In this document: positions 7,786 to 48,785 of the stretch, piece by piece
How the letters are laid out: every line of letters begins with the position of its first letter
How positions within the stretch are numbered: the stretch's first letter is position 1
Origin: Aggregatilineales bacterium
GTDB taxonomy: Bacteria; Chloroflexota; Anaerolineae; Aggregatilineales; Phototrophicaceae
Reading direction: 5' to 3'
DNA length: 64,000 bases
Assembly (NCBI GenBank): GCA_038207205.1
Contig: JBBRAA010000016.1
Span: forward strand, 3,578 to 67,577
Notes under the pieces: model-generated
Database searches by the model: none
Told to the model about the DNA's origin: nothing
What the model saw: the letters and a program-made list of their open reading frames with translations, nothing else
Program-made: the position numbers and the translations under genes

Positions 7786-10700
7786 TTAACACGGGGGTTG
7801 TCCCTCACGACCGCAGTCCGGCAGTGGCGTAGACGTGCGGGTTGCCGTTGCCGTGCGCGTGTTGGTGCGCGTCGACGTCGGCGCAATCGTATTTGTAGCT
7901 GTCGCCGTACTCGTCGCCGTAATCGTCGGCGTAATCGGGGTATTCGTCGGCGTTATTGTCGGCGTAATCGGTGTGTTCGTCGGCGTAATCGGTGTGTTCG
8001 TCCGCGTATTAGTCGGTGTAATCGGTGTGTTCGTCGGCGTAATCGGTGTGTTCGTCGGCGTATTTGTCGGCGTGATCGGTGTGTTCGTCGGCGGAATCGG
8101 GGTATTCGTCCGCGTATTCGTCGGCGTAATCGGTGTGTTCGTCGGCGGAATCGGGGTATTCGTCGGCGTATTCGTCGGCGTAATCGGTGTGTTCGTCGGC
8201 GGAATCGGGGTATTCGTCCGCGTATTCGTCGGCGTAATCGGTGTGTTCGTCGGCGGAATCGTCGGTGTGAATGTATTCGTCGGTGTGAATGTATTCGTCG
8301 CGGTCGGCGTTGGCGTCGGAGTCAAGCAGCTCTCTTGCACCACCTGAGTGACCAAACCGGTGTAGGCGAGCGCGGTCGTGTTATACAACCGATCCGAAAT
8401 CGGTGTGTAGAATGTGATATCCAGAGAACCCAAATCGATACCCACGTTGTAGATGAGCACGCCAGCAGCACGCGCCGCATTGCTCGAAGCGATCATCGCG
8501 TTTCGGTAGGCGTCTGTACTCGGGCGATTACCAATGAGATTGATGATTATACGCACGACGGAACGCGGACTACCGTTAAACTGGGCGACCGCCGAGTTGA
8601 CTGCGGGAGCAGGATTACGATTTCCGCTGGTTGGATCATCGATTTGGGTGTTGATGACATTGTAAATCGATGTCGCGTTTCCGCTCAGCGCCAGTTCCAA
8701 ATCGTTCGTCGTACCACGGTAACGGATGATGCCCACCCGCGTATCGGCGATTCCAATTGTGTATGACGCCACCGCATCGCGCATGAAGTTCTTCTGCGCT
8801 GTGAAATCACTCGGATTACCCGCTAAGCCAATCGCATCCGAGTTATCAAGGATAAACATAATATCCACGTCGGTCGGGCAAATCGGTGTACGCGTCGCTG
8901 TCGGCGTACGCGTCGCGGTCGCGGTCGGCGTATTGGTCGCGGTCGCGGTATTGGTCGCGGTCGCAGTCGCGGTATTGGTCGCGGTCGCAGTGGCAGTCGC
9001 AGTCGGTGTCGCGCTGGCGAAGATACCCGTCGGCGAACCTGTTGTAATACTGCACGCGGGAACCGCTACACTGATCGTCGACCCACCCGGAGCGCCGCCT
9101 GTGGCAATCGTCGGGTTTGCATAACCCCCGAATACGACGTACATATACTCCGAAACACCAGGGTCAATCGCATAAACCAGTAAGCGCGTACCGACGGTCG
9201 CACTATTGGTCGGCGATGTCGTAATGCCCGTACTCGCCTGCCAGAATTTAGTCGATCCAGCGGCTGTCGAAGGACCTGTACCGCCGAACCAAACTTCCGT
9301 GATTGAACGTCCTGCGCTCGCTGCCCATACGATATTGAAGTTCTGAATCGTAATTGGCACTTCGAGCAAGTTCGTCGTCAACACGCGGGCGTGAGTGCTG
9401 CCCGGCGTCGCCTGCGCGAATGCATAGGGCGGAACTGTCGTGCAATCTGGGATTGGCGTGCTAGGTGGCGTATAGGTGAGCGGAATTTCGCAGTCAGTGG
9501 TGCTCAGTGGATCATCGAAGCGCAGCGTGATCGCTGTCACATACGGTTGCATATCCAGTGGGCTATCATCATACACGAATGTAAATTTGTTCTGACCCGT
9601 GGTGATGAACACGCTGCCAGTACCGTTGAAGTCACCATCTGCACCAGTCGGACCGACGATGGTGTTGGGTGCCACATCAGGACCGACCCACACCTGACCG
9701 GTGACAGCGGGTGGTGATGAGATATCAGTGGTCAAACGCATTTCGGTCAAATTTGTACTGGGGAAGAATGACGGGATCGTCCAATTGATTTGCGCGCCTG
9801 TGACCGATGTCGGAATACCATATGTGTAGCTGATATTGACATCAATCTGCGATGTGGATAAGAACGTCGTCCCCGACACGGTGATCGACGCGCACGTAAA
9901 GGCAGGCGTCGCTGTGCGCGTCGCTGTATTTGTGCGCGACGCCGTTGGGGTCAATGTCGCCAAGCCTGTCGCCGTCGCGGTGTTGGTGGGTGAACCGCCA
10001 AGCAGCGGATTCGTGGCTGTTGCGGTGGCGGTCAACGTATTCGTTGATGTAGGCGTGAACGCGTTCGTGGCGGTATTGGTCGCAGTATTGGTCGGGTTGA
10101 TAATCGCCGTTGCAGCGAGCGGCAGTGCACCCACTAACGGCGCGGCGCGCGGACTGCGGAACGCTTCGTTGATGGCGGTGCGGCGCGCTTGCAGACGTAT
10201 AAACGGACCCAAACCCAGCGGCGTGACCAGCGGGTGATTGAAAGTGACAACCACATTGACTGTGTCGCCCGGACCGCCTGCGTCCAACCACGGAATACCG
10301 TCATCCTGACTGCCGGGACCCAGGTTACGATAGTTCATATCGGCGGTGTCAACATCGAGATTACACATGGGTGCGAGTGTATTATTTGCGCTCGCTTCCC
10401 ACACAGTCTGATACCTCGGCACAGCGCTATTATCGCGGGTACGCGAGCTGCACATCATCACATCGAAGAAGCCAGGCTCATCCCACCCGCGCAGCGCGCT
10501 GTTCGGATTAGGCGTGCCCGCCCATTCGACATCGATCGTGCGCATCCATACATAAAACCATGGCACATCCTGCAAGTCCGTAACGTTTGGACTACCCGTG
10601 CCATACGGATTAGAGTTCAGCGCGGTGTAGACCTCTGGAACTAACAGATTGCTCAACTGAAAATCGACGATCGACGACGAGTCGCCGCCAAGTGCCAGCC

Positions 10701-11253
10701 CTGCCGAGCCACGTCGCGCTTCATCATAAATCGACAAGATACGCATCAGGTCGCGGCGGCGGTTTTGGTCATCTGGGTCGAACGGGTCGCAATCTTCGTC
10801 GCGGACGTTGTCCACAGTACTCACATCGCCGTCGCCATACCATGTGGCGTAGATGCTTTCAGCGCCGCCCCAGAAAACATCGATGCTGCGTCCATAAACA
10901 TCGACCGTTTGCCGCGCCCCGACTTGTGCGACGGCGTCGGCAAGTACCAGTCTGTTGTCCGCATCGTTGGCTTCGATACACGGGATCATCGTATTGTACT
11001 GATCGGATGGATCAAGACCGATATAGTTCAGGTTGACGCGAAACTTTTCTTCGTCATACTGACCGGTCGTCGCATAGCGTGCCGCAGCGCGTGCCGCATT
11101 TTGCAGCGTCACCCATGCCTGAAAAATACGCCCAAATTCAATGATGCCGAATAAGAGCGCCAGCAAAATCGGCAATGTCAGGGCAAACTCGGCTAACGTT
11201 TGCCCCTGCCGCCGTCGTTTATAGCGTACCTGCGGTTCGGTTTGTGCTTCCAT
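7786..11253 (-). CDS. tadE: Giant TadE-family minor pilin with vWA domain and Thr/Pro-rich repeats
   Basis: RRRQG|QTLAEFALTLPILLALLFGIIEFG prepilin motif, LQNAARAAARYA; vWA segment DIMFILDNSDAIG...RVGIIRY...IYNVGI; three T/P-rich linkers. Confidence 0.85.
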   Translation of the reverse strand: MEAQTEPQVRYKRRRQGQTLAEFALTLPILLALLFGIIEFGRIFQAWVTLQNAARAAARYATTGQYDEEKFRVNLNYIGLDPSDQYNTMIPCIEANDADNRLVLADAVAQVGARQTVDVYGRSIDVFWGGAESIYATWYGDGDVSTVDNVRDEDCDPFDPDDQNRRRDLMRILSIYDEARRGSAGLALGGDSSSIVDFQLSNLLVPEVYTALNSNPYGTGSPNVTDLQDVPWFYVWMRTIDVEWAGTPNPNSALRGWDEPGFFDVMMCSSRTRDNSAVPRYQTVWEASANNTLAPMCNLDVDTADMNYRNLGPGSQDDGIPWLDAGGPGDTVNVVVTFNHPLVTPLGLGPFIRLQARRTAINEAFRSPRAAPLVGALPLAATAIINPTNTATNTATNAFTPTSTNTLTATATATNPLLGGSPTNTATATGLATLTPTASRTNTATRTATPAFTCASITVSGTTFLSTSQIDVNISYTYGIPTSVTGAQINWTIPSFFPSTNLTEMRLTTDISSPPAVTGQVWVGPDVAPNTIVGPTGADGDFNGTGSVFITTGQNKFTFVYDDSPLDMQPYVTAITLRFDDPLSTTDCEIPLTYTPPSTPIPDCTTVPPYAFAQATPGSTHARVLTTNLLEVPITIQNFNIVWAASAGRSITEVWFGGTGPSTAAGSTKFWQASTGITTSPTNSATVGTRLLVYAIDPGVSEYMYVVFGGYANPTIATGGAPGGSTISVAVPACSITTGSPTGIFASATPTATATATATNTATATATNTATATNTPTATATRTPTATRTPICPTDVDIMFILDNSDAIGLAGNPSDFTAQKNFMRDAVASYTIGIADTRVGIIRYRGTTNDLELALSGNATSIYNVINTQIDDPTSGNRNPAPAVNSAVAQFNGSPRSVVRIIINLIGNRPSTDAYRNAMIASSNAARAAGVLIYNVGIDLGSLDITFYTPISDRLYNTTALAYTGLVTQVVQESCLTPTPTPTATNTFTPTNTFTPTIPPTNTPITPTNTRTNTPIPPTNTPITPTNTPTNTPIPPTNTPITPTNTRTNTPIPPTNTPITPTNTPTNTPITPTNTPITPTNTRTNTPITPTNTPITPTITPTNTPITPTITATSTATATNTIAPTSTRTNTRTATATRTSTPLPDCGREGQPPC
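7969..8238 (-). repeat. Coding tandem array: five 54-bp (18-aa) units ITPTNT(R/P)TNTPI(P/T)PTNTP
   Basis: Units parsed from the translation; residue 7 alternates R,P,R,P,R, giving a 108-bp higher-order period. Confidence 0.9.
8885..9012 (-). repeat. Low-complexity (TA)n/TNT coding linker
   Basis: gtcgcg/gtattg 6-bp units encoding ATPTATATATNTATATATNTATATNTPTATATRTPT. Confidence 0.8.
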
Positions 11254-11290: not shown

Positions 11291-14230
11291 CTATTGCGAA
11301 AGCCGTGTGAACAGGCGAGATGCGATTTCGTTGAATACGCGCGTCAGTTCTTCGGTGGTTCCCGCGCTGAAATAATTACCACAGCTTGTTTGCGGCGCAA
11401 GCGGTGCATAGTCTTCACGAGGTGTTCCACCCAAATCTTCGAGTTGAACTTCGCACGCACCACGTGGACCCCATGCCTGGTCTTGTGGCGGATCTGTCAG
11501 GTCAACACCGTTGCTGATGCGATCCCCCATGAATGCCTGCCAGTGATCGCTGTCGATGCGGAAGTTATCGCCCGCATCGGCGATATAGCGCAGCAGTTCT
11601 TCGCCCAGATAGTCAGCGCGGCGCGGTTCGCTAGCGGGGTTGATGCCGCGCAAGCAGTTGTATTGAGCGGTGCTGCCCACAACGTAAAGCGCCGCATCAT
11701 TGCAGTTGAAGGTTGCTCCCGTATTGGCTGGCTGCGAATAATCGAGTCCGAAACCAATCGTGTAAATCGATGGCAGCAGTTGATCCTGTACGCGACCCAA
11801 AGCAGCCGCGGCTGCCGGGTCGATAGTCAGGTCAGCGACGGCGACCCAGTCCGCCCAATCACGCGCATAATCGTCTACGTCATAGAAGGTTTCACAGCCG
11901 GCTGATTCCAAAGGTTCCAGGTTCGGCTCACCAGCTTGAAACAGGTCGCCGCAGAATGTGCGCGTGTCCGGGTCGACATCCGAACACTGCGGGAAGGTAC
12001 GATCGTCGGTCAGCTCGCCTGGATCGGAAGATGTTCCGTAAGGACACAAACCAAACGCCCCATATTGACCTGCCACCGGCTCGATGACCGTGTAAATGCC
12101 TGTCACATACAACCCTGAGTCAGGTCCCGGAAAAGAACGTGGGCTGTCTGATGCTCGAAAGGCATCGGGCAAAACGGCGGTCGTGTTCTCCGCCGCTGTA
12201 CGCCGAAACGGGTCACTCGCGCCTGCCGCGCCGTCGCTCAACATCACCATCAACCAGACCGCGCCTTCACGCCGCCCGTTCAGGTACAGCATGTTACTGG
12301 CATTCGCAAGCGCGCCGCCGATGTTGGTGCCCGCACACGACGCCACATATTCATAACTCAGGTTACGCGGGCGTCCACCCGTTACCGTACTTGCCTCTGC
12401 AACCGCCCAAGCAGGCATTGTGCCGCCACGACCCGCATTCGTGGTGATGTCGTCGAGCGGTGTTTGCCCGTCTGTCAACGAAGTAGAACGCGTTTCAAGG
12501 AGAGTAGTAGCGGTATTGTAATAATAGCGGATGCTCGTGCCATATTGGGCGTCCATCGAAATTGAGTCGAGCGGACACGCACCGCTGACCGGATGATAGC
12601 GAATCGATTCCAGTGTCAGTGGCGGCGTCCCCACAGGATCAAGGGCGCTGTCGCCTTCAATTTCATCGTAAGTGTAGCAGCCGTTATCTGCGTTCGGATT
12701 GCCGGCGCTGCGTGCGTCTGGGCGCAGTTTCAAACAATCCCATACACCATTGGTATCAATATCGCCGTAGAAATTAGGTTCGGCGCGCACACCGATGTTT
12801 TCAGCCAACACCGCTTCAGCGCCACGCCGACCGATAATATCTGTCTGCGTTTCGATCATTGGGATTTGAGCGCCTTCCCCATCCGGGTCGATGACGAACG
12901 CGGAGCGGTCAAACGTGACATACGCCACGCGGTCGCCGCGCAAAAAGTCCAGTCGCCCTAAGAAGGAAGCGGCAGAGTCGCGCGCGGTTTTGAACGGTTC
13001 GCATACCAAATCGCCGAAATCAAAATCGCCGTTCGGATCATTGCAGCAGCCGTAGAAATTGTAGGTAGGCACAAAACCAACCGCGAATCCCGCATTCGAG
13101 CCATTAAAGTACGCGTTGTATTCCGCTTGAGTCGCGAAGGGCTGCACTGGGTCTGCACCCACATATTCAGTAGTGTACAAATCGTTACTCAAGCCAAAAA
13201 CATTATATGACGACCGCGGCCACACGCGCGATTGACACATAGCGTGTCCTTGCAAATCCTGATGATCGGCGGGGTCTAAGCCAGTCGGCAGCCATTCGTC
13301 CGCGGTGAACAACGCTGGCGCGCAGAAAAATGATTCCATGACGACGTTGTCCGTAGCAGGGTCGATATAGACCGCATAGTTGTTTGATGGGTCACGCTGC
13401 CTTGCTTGCACGGTGAACCCGGCTTGAATTTGTTCCTGGGTCATGTTCATGAACTGCGACCAGTTCCAGCATTCTGGGCGACCGGACGGGTCTGCAAGAT
13501 ATTCCTGATCGGTGAAATATGGCATTCCTGAAACCCAATTTATGGTGCGCGGCAGATAGCGATAGCCATAACCGCCCGCTTCCCAGTCTTCAAAATTCGT
13601 ATCATTGAGCATCGACTCGGATACGTCGAAGATCAATGCCACGTCCAGAACCGCCGTCTGCGAAATCGCTTCGACGCTCAGCGTGACGGTGCCATAGCCG
13701 AGCAAATTCAGGAAAGTGGTCGGCGCCAGAATTTGTGCGGTGACGCGTACCAGCTTGAGTTCGTCATCCGTGCACAACGCTTCAAAACGCTTAATATCTT
13801 CCGGGTTCGCACCGACGCCATACAAAGGCGCCCCAGTGCGGTCGACCGGGTTGCCATTGGTATCGCGCAAACGCTGCACACGGCACGTTTCTACCACCAC
13901 CGTCGATGTGTTGATGCCGTAAGCATCGATAAATTGGCGCGCAGCGAGTTGAAGCTTCGTGATGCTGGCGGCTTCACCGTTCACATCGTCAGTGGGGTCG
14001 GTGGTTCCCAGGTCATCGGGGATGCGGCGCATCTGCCCGGCGGCAGAGACCGCCGCCGCGTCCACTGCACGGCTGAGCGCGCTGTAACGAACGAACAGCA
14101 GCGACACATCGGTGACAATGCCGACGAAACCGAGCAGCGCGACAAATCCAATCGCCAGCACGATGATCGATTGCCCACTCTGTCCGCGTCCGCGTCTCTT
14201 GATGTGTTTCACAGGTTCATTATTCATCAT
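11291..14230 (-). CDS. tadG: TadG-like pilus tip protein with vWA domain
   Basis: GQSG|QSIIVLAIGFVALLGFVGIVTDVS..LSRAVDAAAVSAA Tad N-terminus; intact MIDAS LIFDVSESM; GTNIGGAL, LMVMLSDGAA, IYTIGFG. Start could extend to 14296. Confidence 0.85.
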   Translation of the reverse strand: MMNNEPVKHIKRRGRGQSGQSIIVLAIGFVALLGFVGIVTDVSLLFVRYSALSRAVDAAAVSAAGQMRRIPDDLGTTDPTDDVNGEAASITKLQLAARQFIDAYGINTSTVVVETCRVQRLRDTNGNPVDRTGAPLYGVGANPEDIKRFEALCTDDELKLVRVTAQILAPTTFLNLLGYGTVTLSVEAISQTAVLDVALIFDVSESMLNDTNFEDWEAGGYGYRYLPRTINWVSGMPYFTDQEYLADPSGRPECWNWSQFMNMTQEQIQAGFTVQARQRDPSNNYAVYIDPATDNVVMESFFCAPALFTADEWLPTGLDPADHQDLQGHAMCQSRVWPRSSYNVFGLSNDLYTTEYVGADPVQPFATQAEYNAYFNGSNAGFAVGFVPTYNFYGCCNDPNGDFDFGDLVCEPFKTARDSAASFLGRLDFLRGDRVAYVTFDRSAFVIDPDGEGAQIPMIETQTDIIGRRGAEAVLAENIGVRAEPNFYGDIDTNGVWDCLKLRPDARSAGNPNADNGCYTYDEIEGDSALDPVGTPPLTLESIRYHPVSGACPLDSISMDAQYGTSIRYYYNTATTLLETRSTSLTDGQTPLDDITTNAGRGGTMPAWAVAEASTVTGGRPRNLSYEYVASCAGTNIGGALANASNMLYLNGRREGAVWLMVMLSDGAAGASDPFRRTAAENTTAVLPDAFRASDSPRSFPGPDSGLYVTGIYTVIEPVAGQYGAFGLCPYGTSSDPGELTDDRTFPQCSDVDPDTRTFCGDLFQAGEPNLEPLESAGCETFYDVDDYARDWADWVAVADLTIDPAAAAALGRVQDQLLPSIYTIGFGLDYSQPANTGATFNCNDAALYVVGSTAQYNCLRGINPASEPRRADYLGEELLRYIADAGDNFRIDSDHWQAFMGDRISNGVDLTDPPQDQAWGPRGACEVQLEDLGGTPREDYAPLAPQTSCGNYFSAGTTEELTRVFNEIASRLFTRLSQ

Positions 14231-14285
14231 TTGGTCTGCCTGTCTACTTAATTCAGACACTCTTGAAAACCAGCGAAGTAAATCG

Positions 14286-15611
14286 TTAATCTGCACCGGG
14301 TTTATCGATCAATTCGATGTACGGTTCGACCGACGGCAGTGGGAACATTGCCCACAGGTATAAATCGGGACGTCCATCGCGCGAAAACGCTTCAAAGACG
14401 GGCGACAATACCGGAATTTTCAGCAGCATTTCGTGTTCCCAGTACATTTCGACCAGCGCCACGCCTTGACTGGGCAGCAGACGGCGTTCTTCATACACAT
14501 TGGTATCGGGGTCTAACGAGTCGACTGTGTACTCAGCGAGATTGAACAATTCTTCAATATCGGCGATTCTGAATTCGCTACCAATGCACCCAGTCCCGCC
14601 GATGACATGATTACCGAACCACATGAAGCCGACCTGTTTTTCGATGGTGCCCTGCGTGTAATTATCATCGCTTGGATCATCCGGGTCGATGCCAAAATCA
14701 ACGAAACCTGCAGCCGTCGTACCCCCTACATCGAAGCCTGGAAGCTCTTCAAATTCGTCGCTCACGTTGTAAAGCGCAGCAGTCGGTCCGCTAGGGATGT
14801 TGCCAGCGAACGCATCGATAAATCCGTTGCCGTTGAAATCGAACGGGTCGCGCGCATCAAAAATATCTGGGTCGCTGACAAAGGTCTCAGACGCCTGGCA
14901 TTCGTTCGCATTAACGGGGTAACGTCCTACAACCAACAACTGCGGCACATTGGCGGCAATCGGTCGCATCGAGAGCGTCGTCCAACGATCGATACCGCCG
15001 CCTTCGTCGTCTTTGGTCACATCGATCAGTTCGAGCGCGAACGCCGAGACGATGATGTCATCCACGCCGTTATAAGGATTCATAAAGAGCGGCGTCATCG
15101 AACTCAACATCGTACATGCCACATCGTTATAAAAACCGATGAGCGTCTGATCCGCACCACCGCAAGGGCTGGTAGTGCGCGCCGCCACGACATCCGCAGG
15201 TTCTGCAGATAGAATCCCTCCAAGATATTCATCGCGTACATTCACGCGCTGCTGATTTTCAATCAAAGCAGCAGCCGCGTCGATATACGGCATTTGATAC
15301 TGCACCCGAATATTCGCATTTGGGACATAACTGCTGCGGTCATCCCAAAATAACGGTGAGCGCGTATCCGTTAGCGTGGTCGCGCGGCGCGCGCCATAGC
15401 GCGTCACATCCAATATATTGAGATAGTTGTTCGCTAACCAGCCGATTTCGACTAAGCCCGCGAATAGGATGATCAAGACCGGCGTCAGGAACGCCATTTC
15501 GACCAAGCTTTGTCCGCGCTGTCGGCGCTGACGTTTTTCGTCCTTCGAAGGAGCATGTGCCGCAGGGCTGCCATCAAGGATTTCGATCACGCGAGTCCAA
15601 AATTGTCGCAT
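14286..15611 (-). CDS. tadE: TadE-family minor pilin, large
   Basis: RQRG|QSLVEMAFLTPVLIILFAGLVEIG..TRYGARRA; start reassigned to ATG 15611 after GAGGACAAGGG. Confidence 0.82.
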   Translation of the reverse strand: MRQFWTRVIEILDGSPAAHAPSKDEKRQRRQRGQSLVEMAFLTPVLIILFAGLVEIGWLANNYLNILDVTRYGARRATTLTDTRSPLFWDDRSSYVPNANIRVQYQMPYIDAAAALIENQQRVNVRDEYLGGILSAEPADVVAARTTSPCGGADQTLIGFYNDVACTMLSSMTPLFMNPYNGVDDIIVSAFALELIDVTKDDEGGGIDRWTTLSMRPIAANVPQLLVVGRYPVNANECQASETFVSDPDIFDARDPFDFNGNGFIDAFAGNIPSGPTAALYNVSDEFEELPGFDVGGTTAAGFVDFGIDPDDPSDDNYTQGTIEKQVGFMWFGNHVIGGTGCIGSEFRIADIEELFNLAEYTVDSLDPDTNVYEERRLLPSQGVALVEMYWEHEMLLKIPVLSPVFEAFSRDGRPDLYLWAMFPLPSVEPYIELIDKPGAD

Positions 15612-15660
15612 AAGCCGCCGTACCCTTGTCCTCAACCATCTCTCAATGAGAGGGCTTTTT

Positions 15661-15700
15661 CGCCATGATGATAATACCATACAGACTTTCGTCATGGCGT
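15661..15700 (-). promoter_or_regulatory. Candidate extended -10 promoter for the minor-pilin operon, inside an inverted repeat
   Basis: Minus strand TGgTATTAT at 15679-15671; CGCCATGATG(15661-70)/CGTCATGGCG(15690-99) 9/10 inverted repeat. Confidence 0.35.
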
Positions 15701-15735
15701 TCGCGTTGTGTGCAGAAGTTGATAAGGTTTTGTAC

Positions 15736-15764
15736 AAACAAAAAGCGGTTCAATCATGAACCGC
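15736..15764 (-). terminator. Intrinsic terminator downstream of response regulator 15828..16538
   Basis: Minus strand GCGGTTCA-tgat-TGAACCGC followed by TTTTTGTTT. Confidence 0.75.
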
Positions 15765-15827
15765 CTCAATCTCAGCATTTATGGGGCATTAGTGCCGCCC
15801 CCGACAGCATAATATCGGGGTTAGCCC

Positions 15828-24001: not shown

Positions 24002-24006
24002 GTTTC

Positions 24007-26787: not shown

Positions 26788-26839
26788 TCCAATTTCGTCC
26801 TTCGTCGTACTTTATAGCGTGTAAATGTCTTTCTGTGTA

Positions 26840-38017: not shown

Positions 38018-38018
38018 G

Positions 38019-38336
38019 TTATTCTGTAGCATCCGAAAGCAGCGCGCCTTCGACTTGCGCGCTCGTCAGCCCTTCGATACTGATGATTTTGTCGCGTCCG
38101 GTCGTGCCGGCAACGATCTCGATGTGCTTGACAGGAATATCCAATTGTGCCGCAAGGAACGCGATCAGTTCACTGTTGGCGTCGGGCAAATCGGCGGCGG
38201 CGGCGCGCAGACGAATCTTGATCGCACCTTCTTGTAAACCCGCGACTTCGGTGTTGGCAGAACCCGTCAGCACGCGTACGGTGATTGCCGCGCCGCTGCG
38301 GGCATCGGTGATTTTGAAATCTCGTTTTAGTGGCAT
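38019..38336 (-). CDS. DUF167/YggU family protein
   Basis: ITVRV, AIKIRL, ANSELIAFLA, IVAGTTGRDKII pattern; position after yggT. Confidence 0.8.
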   Translation of the reverse strand: MPLKRDFKITDARSGAAITVRVLTGSANTEVAGLQEGAIKIRLRAAAADLPDANSELIAFLAAQLDIPVKHIEIVAGTTGRDKIISIEGLTSAQVEGALLSDATE

Positions 38337-40489: not shown

Positions 40490-41221
40490 ATGAACGAACG
40501 TGAACGGGGACGCGCCGACAAAATTCACCTGATGATCGTCGATGATCATCAGCTTGTGCGCGATGGCATCAAAAGAACGTTGGAATTTGAAGACGATATT
40601 GAGGTGATTGCAGAATGCAACGATGGCGAAAGCGCGGTACGTGTAGCGGCGCAGCGCAAGCCCGATGTTGTGATTCTCGATGTCAACCTGCCTGTCGTCA
40701 ACGGTTTACAGGTCGCCAAGCATCTGCGCGCCAACCATGAACGGCTCGCGATCATTGTTTTGACGGGCTACGATGATATTGGTCAGGTGCTGCACGCCCT
40801 AAAAGCGGGCGCACAGGCATACTGTCGTAAAGATATGCCGCCAGATCAATTAATTCAAACGATTCGAGATGTGGCGCGCGGCTACTATGTGATCGAAAAT
40901 AAACGCATGGATACGCGCGAGGTACAGGCGTGGTATCAGCAAAAAGTTCAAGAGACCGCCGGGACATATGCCTCAGAAACGCAAGAAGCCTATGGCAATC
41001 TCAGCCCGCGCGAGATGGAAATTCTAAAATGTGTCACCAATGGACAGAGCAATAAAGAGATCGCACGCCGCTTGAAAATCAGCCAGCAAACAGTCAAGAA
41101 TCATATGACATCGATTTTGAAAAAGCTGAACGTCCAGGATCGTACTCAAGCCGCTGTTATGGCATTGAATCGTGGTTGGGTGCGCGTCGAAAGCGAAAAA
41201 TCGAGTAACGGCAAAGTTTAA
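40490..41221 (+). CDS. NarL/LuxR-family response regulator, DegU-like
   Basis: IVDDHQLVRDG, VILDVNLP, VLTG, YCRKD; LuxR HTH LSPREMEILKCVTNGQSNKEIARRLKISQQTVKNH. Confidence 0.92.
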   Translation: MNERERGRADKIHLMIVDDHQLVRDGIKRTLEFEDDIEVIAECNDGESAVRVAAQRKPDVVILDVNLPVVNGLQVAKHLRANHERLAIIVLTGYDDIGQVLHALKAGAQAYCRKDMPPDQLIQTIRDVARGYYVIENKRMDTREVQAWYQQKVQETAGTYASETQEAYGNLSPREMEILKCVTNGQSNKEIARRLKISQQTVKNHMTSILKKLNVQDRTQAAVMALNRGWVRVESEKSSNGKV

Positions 41222-41241
41222 TCTGCAAAGGACTCACAATC

Positions 41242-42330
41242 ATGGTCGAATATCGCAGCGAATCAACCAGAGCGAAAGACGAACTGATCGAAGTGATCAC
41301 CCAACAAATGAAAACGGTTCGCAACAAGTTGACTGAATTGAAATTGCAAATCGATCAGACACAAATCATTATCGACCGTGAGCAAACGCGCAACGCCGAT
41401 GTCGCCAGTGAACTGCGCACGATTCAAGACAACATCGAAACCGTGCCGCGCCAAGATATTCGCGTCAAATATGACGAAGCCTTAGAAGCGCGTTTTCGCT
41501 TGACAACCATGCGCGGACAAATGGAAAAGTTCCAATCGACACGCGGTTCGCTCGAAGAACAACAGCAGTTGATGTCGGCGATCCTCAACAAAATGCAGGG
41601 TGTCGATATAATGGCGGCGACCAACGCACCTACCGAAGGCGGCACGGGCGGTAAGACCATCAACGTCGTCCGTATCATTCAAGCCCAGGAAGACGAACGT
41701 CAGCGCCTTGCCCGACAGATGCACGATGGACCCGCCCAATCACTGACCAACTTCATTTTGCAGAGCGAAATTTGTCAGCGCTTGTTCGACCGTAACCCAG
41801 CACGCGCCGCCGAAGAACTCGTTAACCTTAAAACAGTCGCCAGCGTTACGTTTCAAAAAGTGCGCGACTTTATCTTCGACTTGCGCCCAATGATGCTGGA
41901 TGATCTTGGCATCGTGCCGACCGTACGCCGCTACGTCGAAGCATTCCGCGAGAAAAATGACCTCAACGTCAAACTGGATATTTTGGGCGAAGAACGACGT
42001 TTGCAAATTCACCGCGAAGTCACCATTTTTCGCGGCATTCAGGAATTAATGGGCTATGCCCGCGATTATGCGAACGCCAACGAACTGACGATTCGGCTCG
42101 ATTTGAGCGGCACACGTATCAAGATTAGCGTTGAAGACAACGGGCGCGGCTTTGACGCGAACGCAGCATTTAGCGGCGAAGACGGACATCAGGACGTGCG
42201 CGTTTCTGGATTGATCACCTTACGCGAAAAGTTCGAGTTGATCGGTGGATCGATGCAAGTATTGAGCAGCGCCGAAGCCGAAGGCACATCAGTACGCCTG
42301 GAACTGCCCGAATCCGACGATATGATGTAA
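41242..42330 (+). CDS. DegS-like soluble HisKA_3 kinase with degenerate N-box
   Basis: N-terminal coiled coil, no TM; EDERQRLARQMHDGPAQSLTN, FDLRPMMLDDLG, EDNGRGF. Confidence 0.85.
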   Translation: MVEYRSESTRAKDELIEVITQQMKTVRNKLTELKLQIDQTQIIIDREQTRNADVASELRTIQDNIETVPRQDIRVKYDEALEARFRLTTMRGQMEKFQSTRGSLEEQQQLMSAILNKMQGVDIMAATNAPTEGGTGGKTINVVRIIQAQEDERQRLARQMHDGPAQSLTNFILQSEICQRLFDRNPARAAEELVNLKTVASVTFQKVRDFIFDLRPMMLDDLGIVPTVRRYVEAFREKNDLNVKLDILGEERRLQIHREVTIFRGIQELMGYARDYANANELTIRLDLSGTRIKISVEDNGRGFDANAAFSGEDGHQDVRVSGLITLREKFELIGGSMQVLSSAEAEGTSVRLELPESDDMM

Positions 42331-42407: not shown

Positions 42408-42490
42408 AGGGTCACACAAGAACCAGTACAATTGAACATGCGCGTCGTGTGCGGACAGTTGTTGACCGCGCAGCCGAACGGAGGGAATTG

Positions 42491-43606
42491 ATGAGTCGTT
42501 TGCGGATATTTTTGTTGATCGCCATTCTGGTGTTAGTGGTCGCCGTTGTGGCAGTCTTTGTTATACCCAGCCTTACCCCTGCGCCCGCGCCTGCTGTCGT
42601 ACAAGGCACAGATAGCGCAACCGCAGTCCCCGCAGAACCAGAAGGAACACCAATCCCGACGGCAACGCCGATCTTGTTCGTCGATCTCGTGCTGGCGGTG
42701 CAAGACCTGCCACGCGGTTTCCGCATCACACCCAATGCGGTCGTGCTGCGTCAGTGGCCCGAAGCATCGGCGCCTTTCAATGCTATCACCAGCCTCGAAG
42801 ATGTTGTCAATAAGATCGCCCGCACGGATATTTTCCGCGAGCAGCCGATTTTGACCAACATGGTCGTCGATGACATTCTCGATTTGGCACGTGTCGGCTC
42901 GGATGTCGCGGCGATTTTGCCCGAAGGTCTGGTCGCCGTCTCGCTGCCAGTCGACCGACTGACGGGCGTCGCCAACGGTATTCAAGATGGTGACCACGTC
43001 GATTTGATCATTTCGTTGTTATTTGTCGAAGTCGATGAAGACTTTCAATCACTATCGCCAAACCGCCTGACACTCTTCAGTCGTGCCGAAGACGGTACGA
43101 TTGAACTGCAAGAAGGCATCGAAGGACGCCCAGACCAATCAGCGTTAGGACCCGTCATCGTCGGTCCATCCGAACGTCAACGCCCGCGTCTGGTGACACA
43201 ACGTACCATTCAAGATGCAATTGTCCTTCATGTCGGCAACTTCCCGGCAGATGGTCGTTACATCGGCATCCCTACCCCGACGCCCGTCCCGCCATCCGAT
43301 AACCCAGATGAGGAATCGACGCCAGTGCCACCGACGCCGACACCCGCCCGTGATATTGTCACGCTGGGCATCACGCCTCAGGATGCAGTCACATTGACGT
43401 GGTATATTGAAGCACGCGTGCCCGTCTCACTCGCGATCCGCGCTGTCAATGACACCTCGCGCACATCGACAAGCGCAGTTACGCTTGATTACGTCATGAC
43501 CACTTATGGAATTGAACTGCCGGGCAAACTCCCCTACACGATTGAACCCGCCGTTCGCAGCATTCGTCAGTTGGTTGCCGAAAACCAAATCACGTTGGGC
43601 GAATAA
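42491..43606 (+). CDS. cpaB: Flp pilus assembly protein CpaB/RcpC
   Basis: GAGG RBS and ATG 42491; N-terminal TM; SAF domain VLAVQDLPRG..IARTDIFREQPI; VAVSLPVDRLTGVANGIQDGDHVDLI; VTLGITPQDA. Confidence 0.85.
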   Translation: MSRLRIFLLIAILVLVVAVVAVFVIPSLTPAPAPAVVQGTDSATAVPAEPEGTPIPTATPILFVDLVLAVQDLPRGFRITPNAVVLRQWPEASAPFNAITSLEDVVNKIARTDIFREQPILTNMVVDDILDLARVGSDVAAILPEGLVAVSLPVDRLTGVANGIQDGDHVDLIISLLFVEVDEDFQSLSPNRLTLFSRAEDGTIELQEGIEGRPDQSALGPVIVGPSERQRPRLVTQRTIQDAIVLHVGNFPADGRYIGIPTPTPVPPSDNPDEESTPVPPTPTPARDIVTLGITPQDAVTLTWYIEARVPVSLAIRAVNDTSRTSTSAVTLDYVMTTYGIELPGKLPYTIEPAVRSIRQLVAENQITLGE

Positions 43607-43764: not shown

Positions 43765-45114
43765 ATGCTGAACAGAGGCGGTAACGTTCCTTCCGAAAGC
43801 AAAAGCCAGATCAGCGTCCTGCTTGTGGACGACATCCCCGAAACGCGCGAAAACATCAAGAAACTGCTGGCATTCGAAGAACAGGAATTTCGCGTGGTTG
43901 GCTCGGTCGGCACCGGGCGTGAGGCACTAAAAGCGGCGCAGGAAACGCGCCCAGATATTATCATTATGGACATCAATATGCCGGATATGGACGGCATTGC
44001 GGCGACCACCGAAATCACCAAAGCCGTGCCAACATCAGGCGTAATTATGATGTCGGTCAACAATGATGCTGATTATTTGCGCCGCGCCATGCAGGCGGGC
44101 GCGCGCAACTTTCTGACCAAGCCCATCGACCCGGACGAGTTGTATAACACCATCCGTGCTGTGTATCGCAGCTATGATGCGATCCGCAATCAGCAGCGCG
44201 TCATGATGGATTTGCCCGTCGATGTGCGTCAGCCCATCAAGCCCGCGGCGAACGGGGATGGTGAAATCCGTCCCGGTCATGTCCTCGTCGTGTATAGCCC
44301 ACAAGGGGGCGCCGGCTGCACGACTATTGCCACCAACCTGGCGAGCGGCTTGATGAAGAAAAATATCAAGGTGCTGCTGGTGGATGCCGATTTGCAGTTC
44401 GGTGACATCGGCGTATTTTTGAAAGTTCAGTCACAATCCAACCTGATCGATTTGGTGAACAAAGTCGATGACCTGGACACCGACTTTTTCGACTCGGTTG
44501 TCAGCAATCACGACAGCGGTTTGAAAATCCTCTTAGGACCGCAACGCCCTGAATTTGCCGAAGAAATCGAAGCGAACCCGACCGCCGTCGCCCGTATCAT
44601 CGAAAAAGTCGCCAACAGCTACGATTTTATCGTCGTCGATACCGGGCGTCACCTTGATGAAACGCTGCTTTCGCTAACAGACATTGCTACGCGCATCATC
44701 ATGGTATTGACGCCGACGCTTTCAGCAGTCAAAAATACCAAATTCATGCTCGACTTGTTCGACAAACTGAATTACCCGCTGGAGAAAACCTCGCTGGTAC
44801 TCAACCGCGTCGAAGATGAGCGCGCGCGTAACCGCGTTACTTTAGCGACGGAAAGCATCGAGAAATTTCTCAAGCGTCCTATCGAAGCGAAAATTCCGGA
44901 TAGTCAATCGACTGTTTTAAGCGCCGTCATGAAAGGCGTTCCGGCGGTTGCCGTCAACAAAGCGGATCGTACCAAGCCCGTTGTCAAAGAACTGCTTGAT
45001 TACTCTGACTCGCTGTTCAACGCGTTGATGGGGTCGCAAGGAATCGCCAAAGATGAAGAAGACGACGATAAAAATAAGAAAAAACAAGGTCTAGGGCTGC
45101 GACGCGACAAATAA
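43765..45114 (+). CDS. cpaE: CpaE/TadZ: receiver domain plus MinD/ParA-like ATPase
   Basis: LLVDD, IIMDINMPDMDG, FLTKP; deviant Walker A SPQGGAGCTT, LLVDADLQFGD, FIVVDTG, LVLNR. Confidence 0.88.
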   Translation: MLNRGGNVPSESKSQISVLLVDDIPETRENIKKLLAFEEQEFRVVGSVGTGREALKAAQETRPDIIIMDINMPDMDGIAATTEITKAVPTSGVIMMSVNNDADYLRRAMQAGARNFLTKPIDPDELYNTIRAVYRSYDAIRNQQRVMMDLPVDVRQPIKPAANGDGEIRPGHVLVVYSPQGGAGCTTIATNLASGLMKKNIKVLLVDADLQFGDIGVFLKVQSQSNLIDLVNKVDDLDTDFFDSVVSNHDSGLKILLGPQRPEFAEEIEANPTAVARIIEKVANSYDFIVVDTGRHLDETLLSLTDIATRIIMVLTPTLSAVKNTKFMLDLFDKLNYPLEKTSLVLNRVEDERARNRVTLATESIEKFLKRPIEAKIPDSQSTVLSAVMKGVPAVAVNKADRTKPVVKELLDYSDSLFNALMGSQGIAKDEEDDDKNKKKQGLGLRRDK

Positions 45115-45222: not shown

Positions 45223-46695
45223 ATGTCATCACTACTCAATCGCATTCAAAAAGGTGGAAATTCGAGCGGCGGCTCTGGTGGCAATGGGGGCGACCAGGAA
45301 CCACCCAATCGAAATTCTTCCACCAGTCCATTGGCGGAATCGGGCACGGGCGGGGCGGACGAATCTCGTCTTTCTGCCATGCGTATGCGTAATCAGGCGG
45401 TCGCCGGTCGTCAAGGCAGTGGCACGCGCGATAACACCTATGTCGATTTGAAGACCCGCGTGCAAAATCGGTTGCTTTCAGAACTCGATCAATCCATGGA
45501 CCTGAGCCGTAAACAGGAAGTCCGCGCGCACATCGAAGAATTGTTCAATGCCGTCCTTGCAGAAGAAAGCATGGTGTTGGCACGTGCCGAACGGCAACGT
45601 TTGTTCGAGTCGATTGTCGCTGAAATTATGGGTTTTGGACCGCTCGAACCGTTGTTGGCAGATGAAACCATCACCGAAATCATGGTGAATGGTCCGAAGA
45701 ATATCTTCGTCGAACGCAAAGGCAATATCTCGCGTGCCAACGTCGCGTTTGAAGATGACGACCATGTTATGCGTATTCTAGATCGGATCGTCGCCCCGCT
45801 CGGTCGTCGCGTTGACGAACAATCACCGATGGTTGACGCTCGTTTGCCCGATGGATCGCGTGTGAACGCCATCATCCGTCCAATCTCGCTGGTAGGTCCG
45901 ACGATCACCATCCGCAAATTCTTCAAGAAACCACTTTCTGTCGAAGACTTGATCGCCTACGGAACGATCTCGCGCGAAATGATCGAATTCTTGCGCGCTT
46001 GTATCATCTCGCGCTTGAATCTGGTGGTATCCGGTGGTACGGGGTCTGGCAAAACCACACTCCTTAATATTCTGTCGGGTTTCATCCCCAATGACGAACG
46101 TATCGTCACGATAGAAAACGCCGCCGAATTACAGCTCCGTCAGGAACATGTCATCACGCTGGAAACGCGCCCACCGAACATCGAAGGCAAAGGACAGGTC
46201 AGTATTCAAGACCTGGTCGTCAACAGCTTGCGTATGCGCCCTGACCGTATCGTCGTCGGAGAATGCCGGAGCGGCGAAGCGCTCGACATGCTCCAAGCAA
46301 TGAACACTGGTCACGACGGTTCGCTGACTACCCTGCACAGCAACAGCCCACGCGATACGATTGCGCGCCTCGAAGTGATGTGCTTGATGGCAGGCATGGA
46401 CTTACCCGTGCGCGCCATCCGCGAACAGATTGCCAGTGCGGTCGATGTCATCTGCCATCAGGAACGTTTGCGCGACGGTACACGCAAGGTTGTTAAAATC
46501 ACCGAAGTACAAGGCATGGAAGGTGATATGATCACGATGTCTGACATTTTTGAATATGAACAGACGGGCGTTGAAGGTGGCAAAATCGTCGGTCGTTTGC
46601 GCCCGACTGGCATCCGTCCGAAGTTCACCGACCGGATCGAATCAGCGGGCATCTACCTGCCGCCGTCCGTGTTCGGCGTTGGACGCACGTACTAA
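45223..46695 (+). CDS. cpaF: CpaF/TadA pilus assembly ATPase
   Basis: [25 protein letters not shown], Walker [41 protein letters not shown]. Confidence 0.95.
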
Positions 46696-46832
46696 ATCTA
46701 ACGGACGCTCAAGCGGCGTAATATGAATATGGCAGCGCCATCGCCATTCGTAAGAACCAACATCCAGGGGTGCGCTTTGACGGGCTCGCCCCTGGCAAAC
46801 AAGCAGTTCGTTTTAGAGAAAGTGGTGGGGTC

Positions 46833-47834
46833 GTGGGCATTGAAGTCATTATTCTGATAGGAGCGGTGATCGCCGCTGTCGGCATTCTGATTTGGGGTGT
46901 TGTCAGCGTGCGGACGGAAAAAGACATTATCGAAGAACGTCTTGGCGCTTACGAAGAGAACAATCAGCAAGCATTTCTGGAATTGAGCGAAAAAGCCAAA
47001 GAAGAAGAAAAAGACCGCGAAAAAGAGCGCCGTCGCGGTATGCTCCAGGAACGCCTGGACAGCATCATCGCAGAACGCAATTTCGCTAAACGCTTTCGTA
47101 TGCAGCTTGCACGAGCCGATATTAAACTGACCGTTTCTGAATACGCCGCGCTCCACGTGATTAGTGTATTCGCGTTTTTCACGGTCGGTTATTTCGTGCT
47201 GTTCGGCAATCAATTGGTCATGGGCGTGCTGTCTGCATTCGTCGGCTTTTTCGCACCACGCATTTATGTCGCGCGCGCCACGCAGCAGCGTTTGATCCGG
47301 TTTGAAAGTCAACTACCCGATACGCTCGGTCTGTGGGTCAACGCCCTGCGTTCTGGGTACAGCGTACTGCAATCGATGGAAGCAATTGCGCGTGATGCGC
47401 CGGATCCGACCGCGACCGAATTCAAGCGCGTCGTGCAAGAAGTCCAAATCGGTATCGATATGGAATCCGCGCTCAATCACTTGCTCAACCGCGTCGAAAG
47501 CGACGACCTGGACCTGGTGCTGACTGCCGTCAATATCAATCGTGAAGTCGGCGGTAACCTGGCAGAAATTCTGGACGTTATCGGTCACACGGTGCGCGAA
47601 CGTATCAAGCTCAAGGGCGAGATTCGTGTGCTCACCGCGCAGGGTCGTATTACCGGTTATGTCATTTCGTTCCTGCCGATCATTTTGGCGCTGTTTCTGT
47701 ATACCATCAACCCCAACTACATGTCGAACTTGTTTGAAAATCGCGCGTGTGGGTGGCCGCTGCTTGGCACTGGCTTAGCGATGATTGGGATTGGTATGGC
47801 ATTGATTCAGAAGATCGTGGATATCGAGGTGTAA
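46833..47834 (+). CDS. tadB: TadB inner-membrane platform protein
   Basis: GTG 46833 after GGTGGGG; QLPDTLGLWVNALRSGYS, EVGGNLAEIL, KLKGEIRVLTAQGR. Confidence 0.9.
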   Translation: MGIEVIILIGAVIAAVGILIWGVVSVRTEKDIIEERLGAYEENNQQAFLELSEKAKEEEKDREKERRRGMLQERLDSIIAERNFAKRFRMQLARADIKLTVSEYAALHVISVFAFFTVGYFVLFGNQLVMGVLSAFVGFFAPRIYVARATQQRLIRFESQLPDTLGLWVNALRSGYSVLQSMEAIARDAPDPTATEFKRVVQEVQIGIDMESALNHLLNRVESDDLDLVLTAVNINREVGGNLAEILDVIGHTVRERIKLKGEIRVLTAQGRITGYVISFLPIILALFLYTINPNYMSNLFENRACGWPLLGTGLAMIGIGMALIQKIVDIEV

Positions 47835-47837
47835 TTC

Positions 47838-48785
47838 ATGGATCCTATTTTTGTATTGATCATTGCGGTTGTTGGCGCAGCAGTCGTCGGCGCGCTGGTT
47901 TATGTTGGCGTGCGTGAGGACGAAGGACGCGATCCGCTCCAGGAACGTCTGGCGCAGTACGAAGATAAAGACATTCCGCAGTCGCTGGAAGAGATCGAAC
48001 TATCGCTCTCGTTCAAAGATCGTGTTTTGATGCCGACCGTCAAGCGAGTCGCCAATATCACGACAACCTTCACGCCGCAAAAGCAACTTGAAGATATTCG
48101 CCATCAGATCGAACTGGCAGGCATGACCACCGATGCGGCATCGTTCTTCACGCTGCGTATTTTGGTTACGGTGGCGATGGGCGTCGGCGCATTTCTCGTG
48201 TTCTGGGTCATCGCCCCAAATGCGTTCCCGCGCACGCAAGCGCTCGCCTTCACGGTCGGCTTTACCGCCATCGGTTACTTCTTGCCGATTATGCTCGTCA
48301 AAAGCCGCATCAAGCGTCGCCAGAATTCAATTATCAAGGCGTTGCCCGATGCGCTCGACTTGCTGGTGATTTGCGTCGAAGCAGGTCTCGGCTTCGATAT
48401 GGCGATGGGCAAAGTGTTTGAAAAGTGGGATAACGACCTCGCGGTCGCGTTCGGTCGCGTGCTGCGTGAACTTCAATTAGGCAAAAGCCGCCGCGAAGCG
48501 TTGCGCGATATGGCAACTCGTATGGATGTCCCCGACGTGACCACGTTTGTCGCGGCGATCATTCAGGCGGATCAACTCGGCGTTAGCATGGGCAAGATTT
48601 TGCGCGTCCAAGCCGACCAGATGCGCGTCAAGCGCCGTCAGCGCGCACAAGAAAAAGCGCATCAAGCGCCAGTCAAGATGATTATCCCGATGGTATTCCT
48701 GATATTCCCATCGATCTGGATCGTGTTGTTGGGTCCGTCGATTATCTTGCTGTTCGGCAGCCAGGAAGCTAACGCAGTCTTCTAA
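47838..48785 (+). CDS. tadC: TadC inner-membrane platform protein
   Basis: LPDALDLLVICVEAGLGFD, LGKSRREAL, QADQLGVS, EKAHQAPVKMIIP. Confidence 0.92.
   Translation: MDPIFVLIIAVVGAAVVGALVYVGVREDEGRDPLQERLAQYEDKDIPQSLEEIELSLSFKDRVLMPTVKRVANITTTFTPQKQLEDIRHQIELAGMTTDAASFFTLRILVTVAMGVGAFLVFWVIAPNAFPRTQALAFTVGFTAIGYFLPIMLVKSRIKRRQNSIIKALPDALDLLVICVEAGLGFDMAMGKVFEKWDNDLAVAFGRVLRELQLGKSRREALRDMATRMDVPDVTTFVAAIIQADQLGVSMGKILRVQADQMRVKRRQRAQEKAHQAPVKMIIPMVFLIFPSIWIVLLGPSIILLFGSQEANAVF

Follow-up and report, generated by a model that had tools for sequence, protein, structure and literature searches.

Why do the genes of a Tad pilus stand on both sides of a long row of membrane-bound glycosyltransferase genes, and do the enzymes of that row place sugars on the pilus? 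The question is raised by a stretch of 64,000 nucleotides from an Aggregatilineales bacterium (Anaerolineae; assembly GCA_038207205.1, contig JBBRAA010000016.1, positions 3,578-67,577, forward strand), hereafter the window. An earlier note on this DNA had proposed a dedicated pathway that glycosylates Tad adhesins. We scanned all large open reading frames (ORFs) of the window with Pfam and NCBIfam and followed the arrangement through related genomes. The pairing of a secretin-less Tad (type IVc) system with an island of GT-C glycosyltransferases is an old, widely kept neighbourhood of the Anaerolineae and related Chloroflexota. Its gene content, the GT-C folds, the conserved linkage and the conserved extracytoplasmic Thr/Pro tracts were established directly. 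As for function, we tentatively favour O-glycosylation outside the cytoplasm that acts on the Thr/Pro stalks of exported proteins, the pseudopilin TadE' and CpaB among them, and is not dedicated to the pilus.

The two tad blocks and the GT-C island

The Pfam and NCBIfam map bore out the anatomy and coordinates of the earlier note: minor pilins lie on the minus strand and cpaB-cpaE-cpaF-tadB-tadC on the plus strand, about 27 kb apart and pointing away from each other, with the GT-C island between them. Co-oriented with the pseudopilins in this gap are two OmpR-type regulators, a kinase with GAF domains, a PspA-like protein, a phosphoglycosyl transferase and seven polytopic membrane proteins. 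The last eight genes form the island (20709-34458):

20709-22388, minus strand: M559, GT-C fold, with the motif FPLDDSWIHQ invariant after the first transmembrane segment (TM1)
22385-23998, minus strand: M629, true length about 537 amino acids, paralogue of M559 (hhalign 97.9%, E 5e-13)
24007-25260, minus strand: M417, GT87-like GT-C membrane protein
25339-26787, minus strand: M482, GT-C fold, with an invariant D28-x-D30..WWH after TM1
26953-28392, minus strand: polyprenyl-phosphate phosphoglycosyl transferase of the WbaP/WcaJ/EpsB type (Bac_transf 224 bits)
28392-30710, minus strand: YfhO-family GT-C of 772 amino acids (YfhO772; Pfam YfhO 66 bits, threshold 28.5)
30789-32921, minus strand: M710, YfhO-like GT-C paralogue (hhalign to the YfhO772 family 99.8%, E 7e-29)
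32797-34458, minus strand: M553, distant member of the M559/M629 group (hhalign to M559 89%, E 2e-6, 427 columns)

The seven polytopic proteins, each with 8-16 hydrophobic segments in a crude hydropathy scan, fall into four sequence groups and were all confirmed as GT-C or GT-C-like, M559 and M482 by fold and the other five by homology. Only YfhO772 scored above a Pfam threshold. M559, M482 and M553 had no Pfam or NCBIfam match, M629 gave a weak PMT_2 match (19 bits, threshold 26.1) and M710 reached 15.5 bits for DUF2079 (threshold 28.2). In the M417 family 20 of 26 members matched Pfam GT87 (best 1.5e-7), the window copy itself having no match above threshold. Profile searches with the M629, M417 and M482 families against PDB sequences yielded nothing useful, with no match at all for M482, and fold comparison was used instead. 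The AlphaFold2 model of M559, built with 30 homologues, had a mean predicted local distance difference test (pLDDT) score of 89.4 and a predicted template-modelling (pTM) score of 0.91. Its top 38 PDB matches in Foldseek were all GT-C enzymes, among them STT3, AglB, PglB, ArnT, AftA, AftB, AftD, ALG9/12, DPY19, Pmt4, Pmt1-Pmt2 and EmbA-EmbB, with best template-modelling scores of 0.45-0.61. The top 19 matches of the M482 model (pLDDT 84.3, pTM 0.85) were likewise all GT-C. An invariant Asp directly follows TM1 in M559 (D50-D51), M629 (D46) and M482 (D28/D30), an acidic motif that the models would place in the first extracytoplasmic loop, as for GT-C enzymes. M559/M629/M553 and M482 are new GT-C families with more than 1000 homologues each; M559 itself has more than 1000, and M482, which keeps 59-77% identity across species, more than 2000. 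A reading of M629 as 629 amino acids (22385-24274) was discarded as spurious, since its first 92 or so codons, which overlap M417, are not found in the orthologues (about 530 amino acids).

The phosphoglycosyl transferase scored 384 bits against TIGR03025 (cut-off 295.55) and is of the kind that initiates synthesis in an exopolysaccharide (EPS) or O-antigen cluster. One nucleotide is shared between its start and the yfhO stop. Across relatives, the island is a region of variable content around a conserved core, M482-M417-M629-M559. The module of phosphoglycosyl transferase, YfhO and M710 is present in only a subset of them, and extra members (at L013:2037-4484, L026:3960-5561 and 7096-8397, and L137:9-4717) include a PMT_2 protein at 71 bits, a GT87 protein at 63 bits, an M553 paralogue and one Wzy_C-TPR protein (L013).

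The two tad blocks and the regulatory genes beside them read as follows:

7735-7751: second terminator-like hairpin, after tadE'
7786-11253, minus strand: tadE', giant TadE-type pseudopilin of 1155 amino acids (Pfam TadE 61 bits, VWA 38 bits)
11291-14296, minus strand: tadG-like pseudopilin of 1001 amino acids (Pfam PF13400 Tad 25 bits)
14286-15737, minus strand: tadE pseudopilin, longest ORF 483 amino acids (Pfam TadE 35 bits)
15742-15767, minus strand: terminator-like hairpin with an 11-bp stem between the regulator gene and tadE, the top-ranked site
15828-16538 and 16765-17457, minus strand: two OmpR-type response regulators (Pfam Response_reg and Trans_reg_C)
17464-20088, minus strand: sensor histidine kinase (weak REC, GAF domains, HisKA, HATPase), cytoplasmic, with no transmembrane segment
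20101-20640, minus strand: PspA/IM30-like coiled-coil protein (Pfam 33.4 bits, just below the 33.9 cut-off)
40490-42330, plus strand: NarL-type response regulator and cytoplasmic DegS-like HisKA_3 kinase (Pfam)
42449-43606, plus strand: cpaB/rcpC (Pfam RcpC and SAF; TIGR03177 86 bits, above cut-off)
43765-45114, plus strand: cpaE/tadZ (REC domain and ParA/MinD-like ATPase)
45223-46695, plus strand: cpaF/tadA secretion ATPase (Pfam T2SSE 220 bits; TIGR03819 346 bits, below the 373 cut-off)
46770-47834, plus strand: tadB, platform protein (Pfam T2SSF)
47838-48785, plus strand: tadC, platform protein (Pfam T2SSF)

The window thus holds the Tad core of TadA/CpaF, TadB, TadC, TadZ/CpaE and RcpC/CpaB together with TadE/TadG pseudopilins, whose two TadE matches and PF13400 match all pass their cut-offs, and each of the two operons has its own two-component system alongside. 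TadE' starts with a prepilin-like helix (motif G/QTLAEF, of the prepilin type G/QxxxE) and carries a VWA domain at residues 797-942 that matches PDB 4cn8. It is a likely candidate for the tip adhesin of the pilus. TadG has 20 Cys and a DxSxS motif (FDVSESM) resembling a metal-ion-dependent adhesion site, and TadE shows the prepilin-type motif G/QSLVEM; the true start of tadE is probably near 15611, because its orthologues have about 380-420 amino acids. The hairpin at 15742-15767 suggests that tadE-tadG-tadE' is a transcription unit of its own, if weakly, as the total number of hairpins was not above that in shuffled sequence; promoter and terminator scans of the window as a whole did not exceed shuffled controls, and only the two gene-end hairpins are used here, as weak evidence. 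The receiver domain of CpaE/TadZ, fused to the ParA-like ATPase, is a strong canonical match (Response_reg 108 bits) and may put pilus assembly under direct phosphorelay control.

Motif and small-ORF scans found no flp major pilin gene (about 50 amino acids, G/xxxxEY) in the 64-kb window; it presumably sits elsewhere in this genome, and in many relatives it lies between the kinase and cpaB. No A24 prepilin peptidase (TadV/CpaA) was matched in any scanned ORF, and its gene may lie outside the window. The lack of a secretin (RcpA/CpaC) claimed in the earlier note held for all scanned ORFs and is no argument against Tad membership, because Chloroflexota loci are described as secretin-less (PMC7332563). 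The order cpaB-cpaE-cpaF-tadB-tadC, the TadE/TadE/TadG trio and the missing secretin, as expected for a likely monoderm, agree with published Chloroflexota Tad loci (PMC7332563, PMC4877987), from which the window differs in the split of about 27 kb and in having flp and the prepilin peptidase gene outside its 64 kb. The papers on Tad pili in Chloroflexota cover the cpaB-tadC cluster, tadEEG and flp, together with the expression of these genes and microscopy of the pili (PMC4877987, PMC7332563, 10.1101/2025.08.19.671072). The terms 'glycos' and 'glycosyl' are absent from all three, which mention no neighbouring glycosyltransferase island, and our literature searches found nothing linking Chloroflexota Tad genes to glycosylation.

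Linkage of the island and the tad genes in relatives

Linkage was followed from both sides. From an alignment of M559 homologues we collected 80 species-level genome loci with 10-kb flanks and mapped the window proteins onto them, using for counts the 74 in which M559 is followed by 1.5 kb or more of sequence. A second set came from a metagenome scan anchored on the tad-side kinase, and counts were made over the 33 loci that extend 3 kb or more upstream of the regulator.

On the GT-C side, tadE-tadG, with or without tadE', was within reach in 33 of the 74 loci, mostly behind a block of PspA-like protein, kinase and regulator (type A) that includes the OmpR-type regulators at the same position; type C has this layout without the two-component system. 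Ten further loci look like type A or C up to an early contig end. Another ten (type B) have the NarL regulator, the DegS-like kinase and cpaB to tadC directly downstream of M559, co-oriented with it and separated by 43-158 nt, and five have the PspA/kinase block without a pilin. A PspA-like gene follows M559 in 50 related loci, and the pair of NarL-type regulator and DegS-like kinase is always directly upstream of flp or cpaB. On the tad side, a GT-C gene lay directly upstream on the same strand in 15 of 33 loci, and the island was found within 10 kb in a window-like arrangement in 10 of 33. Two loci had unknown ORFs with 13 transmembrane segments at this place, and six had none of these, three of them on window-like contigs that end short of the island. 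Unlinked GT-C and tad genes in relatives, the outcome that the earlier note had set against its proposal, were therefore not the rule: tad genes follow M559 in 43-53 of 74 loci, and 25 of the 33 tad-kinase loci are linked.

In the window the GT-C gene nearest to tadE is M559, about 5 kb off with four genes between, while in relatives M629 or M559 comes to within two genes of flp and three of tadE. A canonical flp of 48-52 amino acids lies between kinase and cpaB in many type B loci, and in L137, L148, L149, L150 and L156 pseudopilin genes lie there as well, which gives one co-oriented run of GT-C genes, regulator, kinase, flp, tadE/G and cpaB. The order in L137 is PMT_2, GT87, PMT_2, an M553-like and an M629-like gene, regulator, kinase, flp, tadE adhesin, tadE, tadG and cpaB, with PMT_2 above threshold plus a weak PMT match. 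The core of L071 consists of four GT-C genes with 4-nt overlaps, and the regulator follows after an 80-nt gap. A canonical flp-like gene of L074 (L074:3514-3696) stands 1.6 kb upstream of M482, on the side of the island opposite cpaB, so that the GT-C island sits there between flp and the other tad genes.

The first pseudopilin of L137 (L137:11441-14620) is a TadE protein of 1059 amino acids with Big_1, CARDB and SdrD_B-like domains in place of VWA, which suggests interchangeable adhesin modules on a pseudopilin scaffold.

The adjacency persists down to 33-45% M559 identity in records labelled Aggregatilineales, Anaerolinea, Thermoflexus and Ardenticatenia, labels by which the loci span several orders or classes. 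When gene order is kept at such protein identity, it is usually read as pointing to a common function. In a rough neighbour-joining tree of M559, type B occupies deep branches and type A forms one derived clade. The several layouts were for that reason given less weight as independent events, and the history looks like an ancestral adjacency, essentially one rearrangement from B to A that kept the genes close, and repeated losses. On this evidence, a real functional link between the island and the tad genes seems to us somewhat more probable than not.

Thr/Pro tracts on exported proteins

The earlier note had described dense Thr/Pro tracts on the pilins and on several local lipoproteins. Of the pilins this holds for TadE' alone, which far exceeds every other window protein in Thr/Pro richness: 346 of its 1155 residues (30%) fall in four tracts (residues 385-451, 580-620, 746-800 and 965-1147), and its Thr content is 18%, against 7% for window proteins overall. 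The C-terminal stalk is encoded by a tandem repeat:

7923-8261: 54-nt tandem repeat, 6.3 copies, 93% matches (Tandem Repeats Finder), encoding the 18-residue TNTPITPTNT... repeat of TadE'

Neither this repeat (6.3 copies, 93%) nor the seven GT-C genes in a row are chance features. A plus-strand ORF at 7687-8766 (359 amino acids, GVFVGVIGVF...) was rejected as a mirror artefact of the repeat. Every orthologue that reaches beyond about residue 380 has the stalk, nine in all, with the four full-length ones among them. TadG and TadE of the window have no Thr/Pro tract, nor have their 35 and 33 orthologues, and the Flp pilins of relatives have none.

The other carriers seen were CpaB, with a linker at residues 269-306 and a tract in 18 of 56 orthologues; the lipoprotein-like o195, with a tract in 7 of 11 orthologues; ORF 262-1119; and a solute-binding protein at 52105-53085. 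Among ORFs of at least 200 amino acids in the related loci, tracts occurred in 10 of 50 unrelated exported-like proteins and in 2 of 279 others (Fisher p = 1.5e-7). In these lineages, then, the tracts mark extracytoplasmic proteins in general; a putative acceptor motif of this kind would not be confined to pilus or adhesin proteins.

These carriers and the other genes between and around the blocks are:

262-1119: ORF with a Thr/Pro tract
5215-7661: DsbD/CcdA-like, thioredoxin-like and DUF2085 genes, just beyond tadE'
34614-37343: NACHT/HEAT protein of the STAND type, 909 amino acids (P-loop/NACHT-like N-terminus and HEAT repeats), divergent from M553
37445-38032, minus strand: o195, lipoprotein-like (LVGC lipobox), with a Thr/Pro tract
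between o195 and the plus-strand NarL-type regulator, in the middle of the region: yggU-yggT-yggS-yfiH
48912-50185: comF (ComFC/GntX-like phosphoribosyltransferase) and hpf (ribosome hibernation factor), directly after tadC
50281-52075, minus strand: GT2a and GT2b, soluble GT2 glycosyltransferases, after hpf
52105-53085: phosphonate-type solute-binding protein with a Thr/Pro tract
55405-58891: cluster of a circularly permuted ATP-grasp (566 bits), an Alpha-E domain and a transglutaminase-like protein

The two-component block and the eight glycosylation genes that the earlier note placed between the tad blocks are there; it had left out the NACHT/HEAT gene, yggU-yggT-yggS-yfiH and the second two-component system. 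The NACHT/HEAT gene keeps its spot in the window-like loci L062, L081, L085, L086, L093-L096, L101 and L122, and in type A loci o195, a possible further substrate of glycosylation, is likewise retained in its place between yggS and the island. GT2a and GT2b are kept after hpf in most relatives, together with the binding-protein gene. The adjacency of comF could hint at a role of this Tad system in DNA uptake.

The DsbD/CcdA-like, thioredoxin-like and DUF2085 genes keep their position in relatives L020, L060, L062 and L079, even though L079 has no tad gene there. With 12 Cys in TadE' and 20 in TadG next to DsbD and thioredoxin genes, a link in disulfide handling is conceivable.

What the island may glycosylate

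According to the reading that we favour, the seven GT-C proteins would span the cytoplasmic membrane, expose their conserved acidic loop to the outside of the cell and draw sugars from polyprenyl-phosphate carriers, the phosphoglycosyl transferase providing a polyprenyl-diphosphate-linked primer in those genomes that carry it. Their targets for O-glycosylation would be exported proteins with Thr/Pro-rich stalks. Of the proteins encoded nearby, the giant pseudopilin TadE' and CpaB would be substrates; other exported proteins would share the modification, and the short Flp filament subunit would probably be no target. The GT-C identity of the seven proteins, their linkage to the tad genes, the tract data and the above-threshold PMT_2 proteins within the island of relatives count in favour of protein O-glycosylation. 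STT3 and DPY19, both protein-modifying, are the best fold matches of M559 and M482 and give only a hint of a protein acceptor, because their margins over ArnT and the Aft enzymes are small.

There are precedents for such an activity. In the streptococcal Pgf and GtrB/PgtC2 systems, YfhO-type GT-Cs act outside the membrane and glycosylate Ser/Thr-rich disordered regions of adhesins and membrane proteins, and in S. mutans the genes of the adhesin substrates lie inside the Pgf cluster (PMC12041528). Those systems comprise one or two GT-Cs and an obvious GT-A polyprenyl-phosphate sugar synthase, whereas here seven GT-Cs and a phosphoglycosyl transferase stand without a recognisable synthase, and the candidate substrate is a pilus pseudopilin. 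Another GT-C enzyme, TfpW of Pseudomonas aeruginosa group IV pilins, arabinosylates a type IV pilin (bioRxiv 10.1101/2020.04.19.049825). TfpW is a single enzyme acting on a major type IVa pilin; our candidate substrate is a minor pilin of 1155 amino acids, and the Flp proteins of relatives have no tract.

Several points weigh against the O-glycosylation of Thr/Pro stalks. That a glycan is made at all, and which donor and acceptor it would involve, is what we infer from the genes. No polyprenyl-phosphate sugar synthase or flippase was recognisable in the island. As candidate synthases, GT2a and GT2b have no transmembrane segment and stay far below all NCBIfam cut-offs (PpgS 28 bits, cut-off 370); what they weakly resemble are synthases of polyprenyl-phosphate sugars, rhamnosyltransferases and enzymes of hormogonium polysaccharide. 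A supply of the island by these two enzymes is possible. Among RNA sequencing runs none held the organism's sequence, DNA runs placing it in microbial-mat, freshwater and sediment metagenomes. To our knowledge, a phosphoglycosyl transferase with seven to ten GT-Cs exceeds any known bacterial system for protein O-glycosylation and resembles envelope-glycan lines, and the high conservation of M482 across species suggests a core envelope role. Unrelated genes follow M559 in 16 of the 74 loci (22%), where the island has no adjacent tad genes, and such unlinked loci occur in about eight or more places on the M559 tree. Synteny itself is not particular to the pair: comF-hpf is as syntenic with tadC as the tad genes are with the GT-C genes, following it directly in almost every locus with tadC and in all layouts (e.g. 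L065, L069, L081, L085, L094, L116 and L120), and we know of no role of hpf in pili, so that long-range synteny in this lineage is insufficient alone to show shared function. Housekeeping genes between and around the blocks are conserved in window-like genomes too, and L079 keeps yfiH-yggS, the GT-C core and DUF2085-thioredoxin-DsbD-CCA with no tad gene between. Lastly, the Tad filament of Caulobacter shows no glycan density (PMC10710030), which would fit the large pseudopilin, and not Flp, as any target here.

Nearly as likely is the wall polymer that the earlier note had itself offered as an alternative. The phosphoglycosyl transferase would prime a polyprenyl-diphosphate carrier and, on the outer side of the membrane, the GT-Cs would extend or decorate a secondary wall polysaccharide, a lipoglycan, a sheath or a slime, in a manner resembling the assembly of mycobacterial arabinogalactan and lipoarabinomannan. 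The tad adjacency might then reflect a joint part in adhesion or gliding, by analogy with the holdfast and Tad pili of Caulobacter or with the hormogonium polysaccharide and type IV pili of cyanobacteria, or a shared envelope role. Seven GT-Cs of four sequence groups beside a TIGR03025 EPS-type enzyme suit such a line, as do the added PMT_2 and GT87 proteins of relatives and the Wzy_C-TPR protein of L013, the very wide occurrence and high conservation of M559 and M482 homologues, the islands without adjacent tad genes, the PspA-like protein and two-component system beside M559, and the weak matches of GT2b to the hormogonium polysaccharide transferases HpsE and HpsN. The likeness of M417 to GT87 points the same way, since known GT87 enzymes act on lipoglycans (PMC12041525). 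Against this, Pfam and NCBIfam recognised no LCP-type ligase, flippase, ABC exporter, Wzx/Wzy or cytoplasmic glycosyltransferase inside the window's island; many relatives with the tad-proximal core lack the module of phosphoglycosyl transferase, YfhO and M710; and the fold matches lean, by their small margins, to protein-modifying enzymes. A glycan of the envelope would also leave unexplained why, in deep lineages, it is M629 or M559 that precedes the tad regulator pair at a distance of 43-158 nt.

The actinobacterial GT-C sets for protein O-mannosylation (PMT) and for envelope glycans (Emb/Aft/Mpt/PimE) offer a further comparison. Actinobacterial PMTs target Thr/Pro-rich secreted proteins, and we know of no link between the GT-C sets of Actinobacteria and pili. 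Like the island, the PMT and Emb/Aft/Mpt/PimE sets comprise several GT-Cs, theirs being users of polyprenyl-phosphate sugars (PMC12041525, PMC12041299); our fold matches include AftA, AftB, AftD, EmbA-EmbB and ArnT, and M417 is GT87-like, but membership of GT39, GT53 or GT85 was not detectable by sequence, and the phylum is a different one.

It is unlikely, in our judgement, that the island and the Tad system work independently and stay together only through inherited gene order on an unusually stable chromosome backbone. The equally syntenic comF-hpf, the retention of yfiH-yggS-yggT-yggU, NACHT/HEAT and DUF2085-thioredoxin-DsbD in window-like loci, the backbone of L079, and a tree with one B-to-A rearrangement and some eight or more independent losses of the link would all agree with it. 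It accounts poorly for an adjacency that survives to 33-45% M559 identity across Anaerolinea, Thermoflexus, Ardenticatenia and Aggregatilineales records and through rearrangement into at least three layouts, with same-strand spacing below 160 nt in the deep one, or for the flp-like gene of L074 on the island side away from cpaB.

A pathway strictly dedicated to Tad adhesins, the narrow form of the O-glycosylation reading in the earlier note, draws on the same linkage and on the conserved stalk of TadE', the most Thr/Pro-rich protein of the window, but is very unlikely, given tracts on about 20% of unrelated exported-like proteins and none on TadG, TadE or Flp, the 22% of loci whose island has no adjacent tad genes, and the implausibility of a single adhesin served by seven to ten GT-Cs.

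In archaea, the GT-C oligosaccharyltransferase AglB serves the glycosylation of type IV pili and archaella. STT3 and AglB are among the best fold matches of M559 and M482, a likeness at the level of fold only (template-modelling scores 0.5-0.6). With considerable doubt, one may imagine a glyco-pilus module ancestral in the Anaerolineae and related Chloroflexota, in which the phosphoglycosyl transferase primes a lipid carrier, the GT-Cs extend the glycan on the outer side of the membrane like the ALG enzymes of the endoplasmic reticulum lumen, and an STT3-like M559 or M629 transfers it to the TadE' stalk. If true, such a module would give bacteria an equivalent of the glycosylated type IV filaments of archaea, which are thought to be the ancestors of Tad pili (as cited in 10.1101/2025.08.19.671072).

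Overall, most of what the earlier note observed stands, and its glycosylation interpretation is supported in part, by the linkage, though not in being dedicated. The locus is related both to pilin and adhesin glycosylation loci and to multi-GT-C envelope lines, and the conserved pairing suggests, without proving, sugars on pilus or surface proteins. Filamentous Chloroflexota are abundant in microbial mats, sediments and wastewater flocs, and their main appendage for adhesion, and probably for motility, appears to be the Tad pilus. Three of the four GT-C sequence groups have no curated model above threshold in the window, so that a mostly unannotated enzyme set is coupled here to pilus genes. 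The lead bears on either protein O-glycosylation in Chloroflexota, whose exported proteins often carry Thr/Pro stalks, or a pathway for a wall or sheath glycan.

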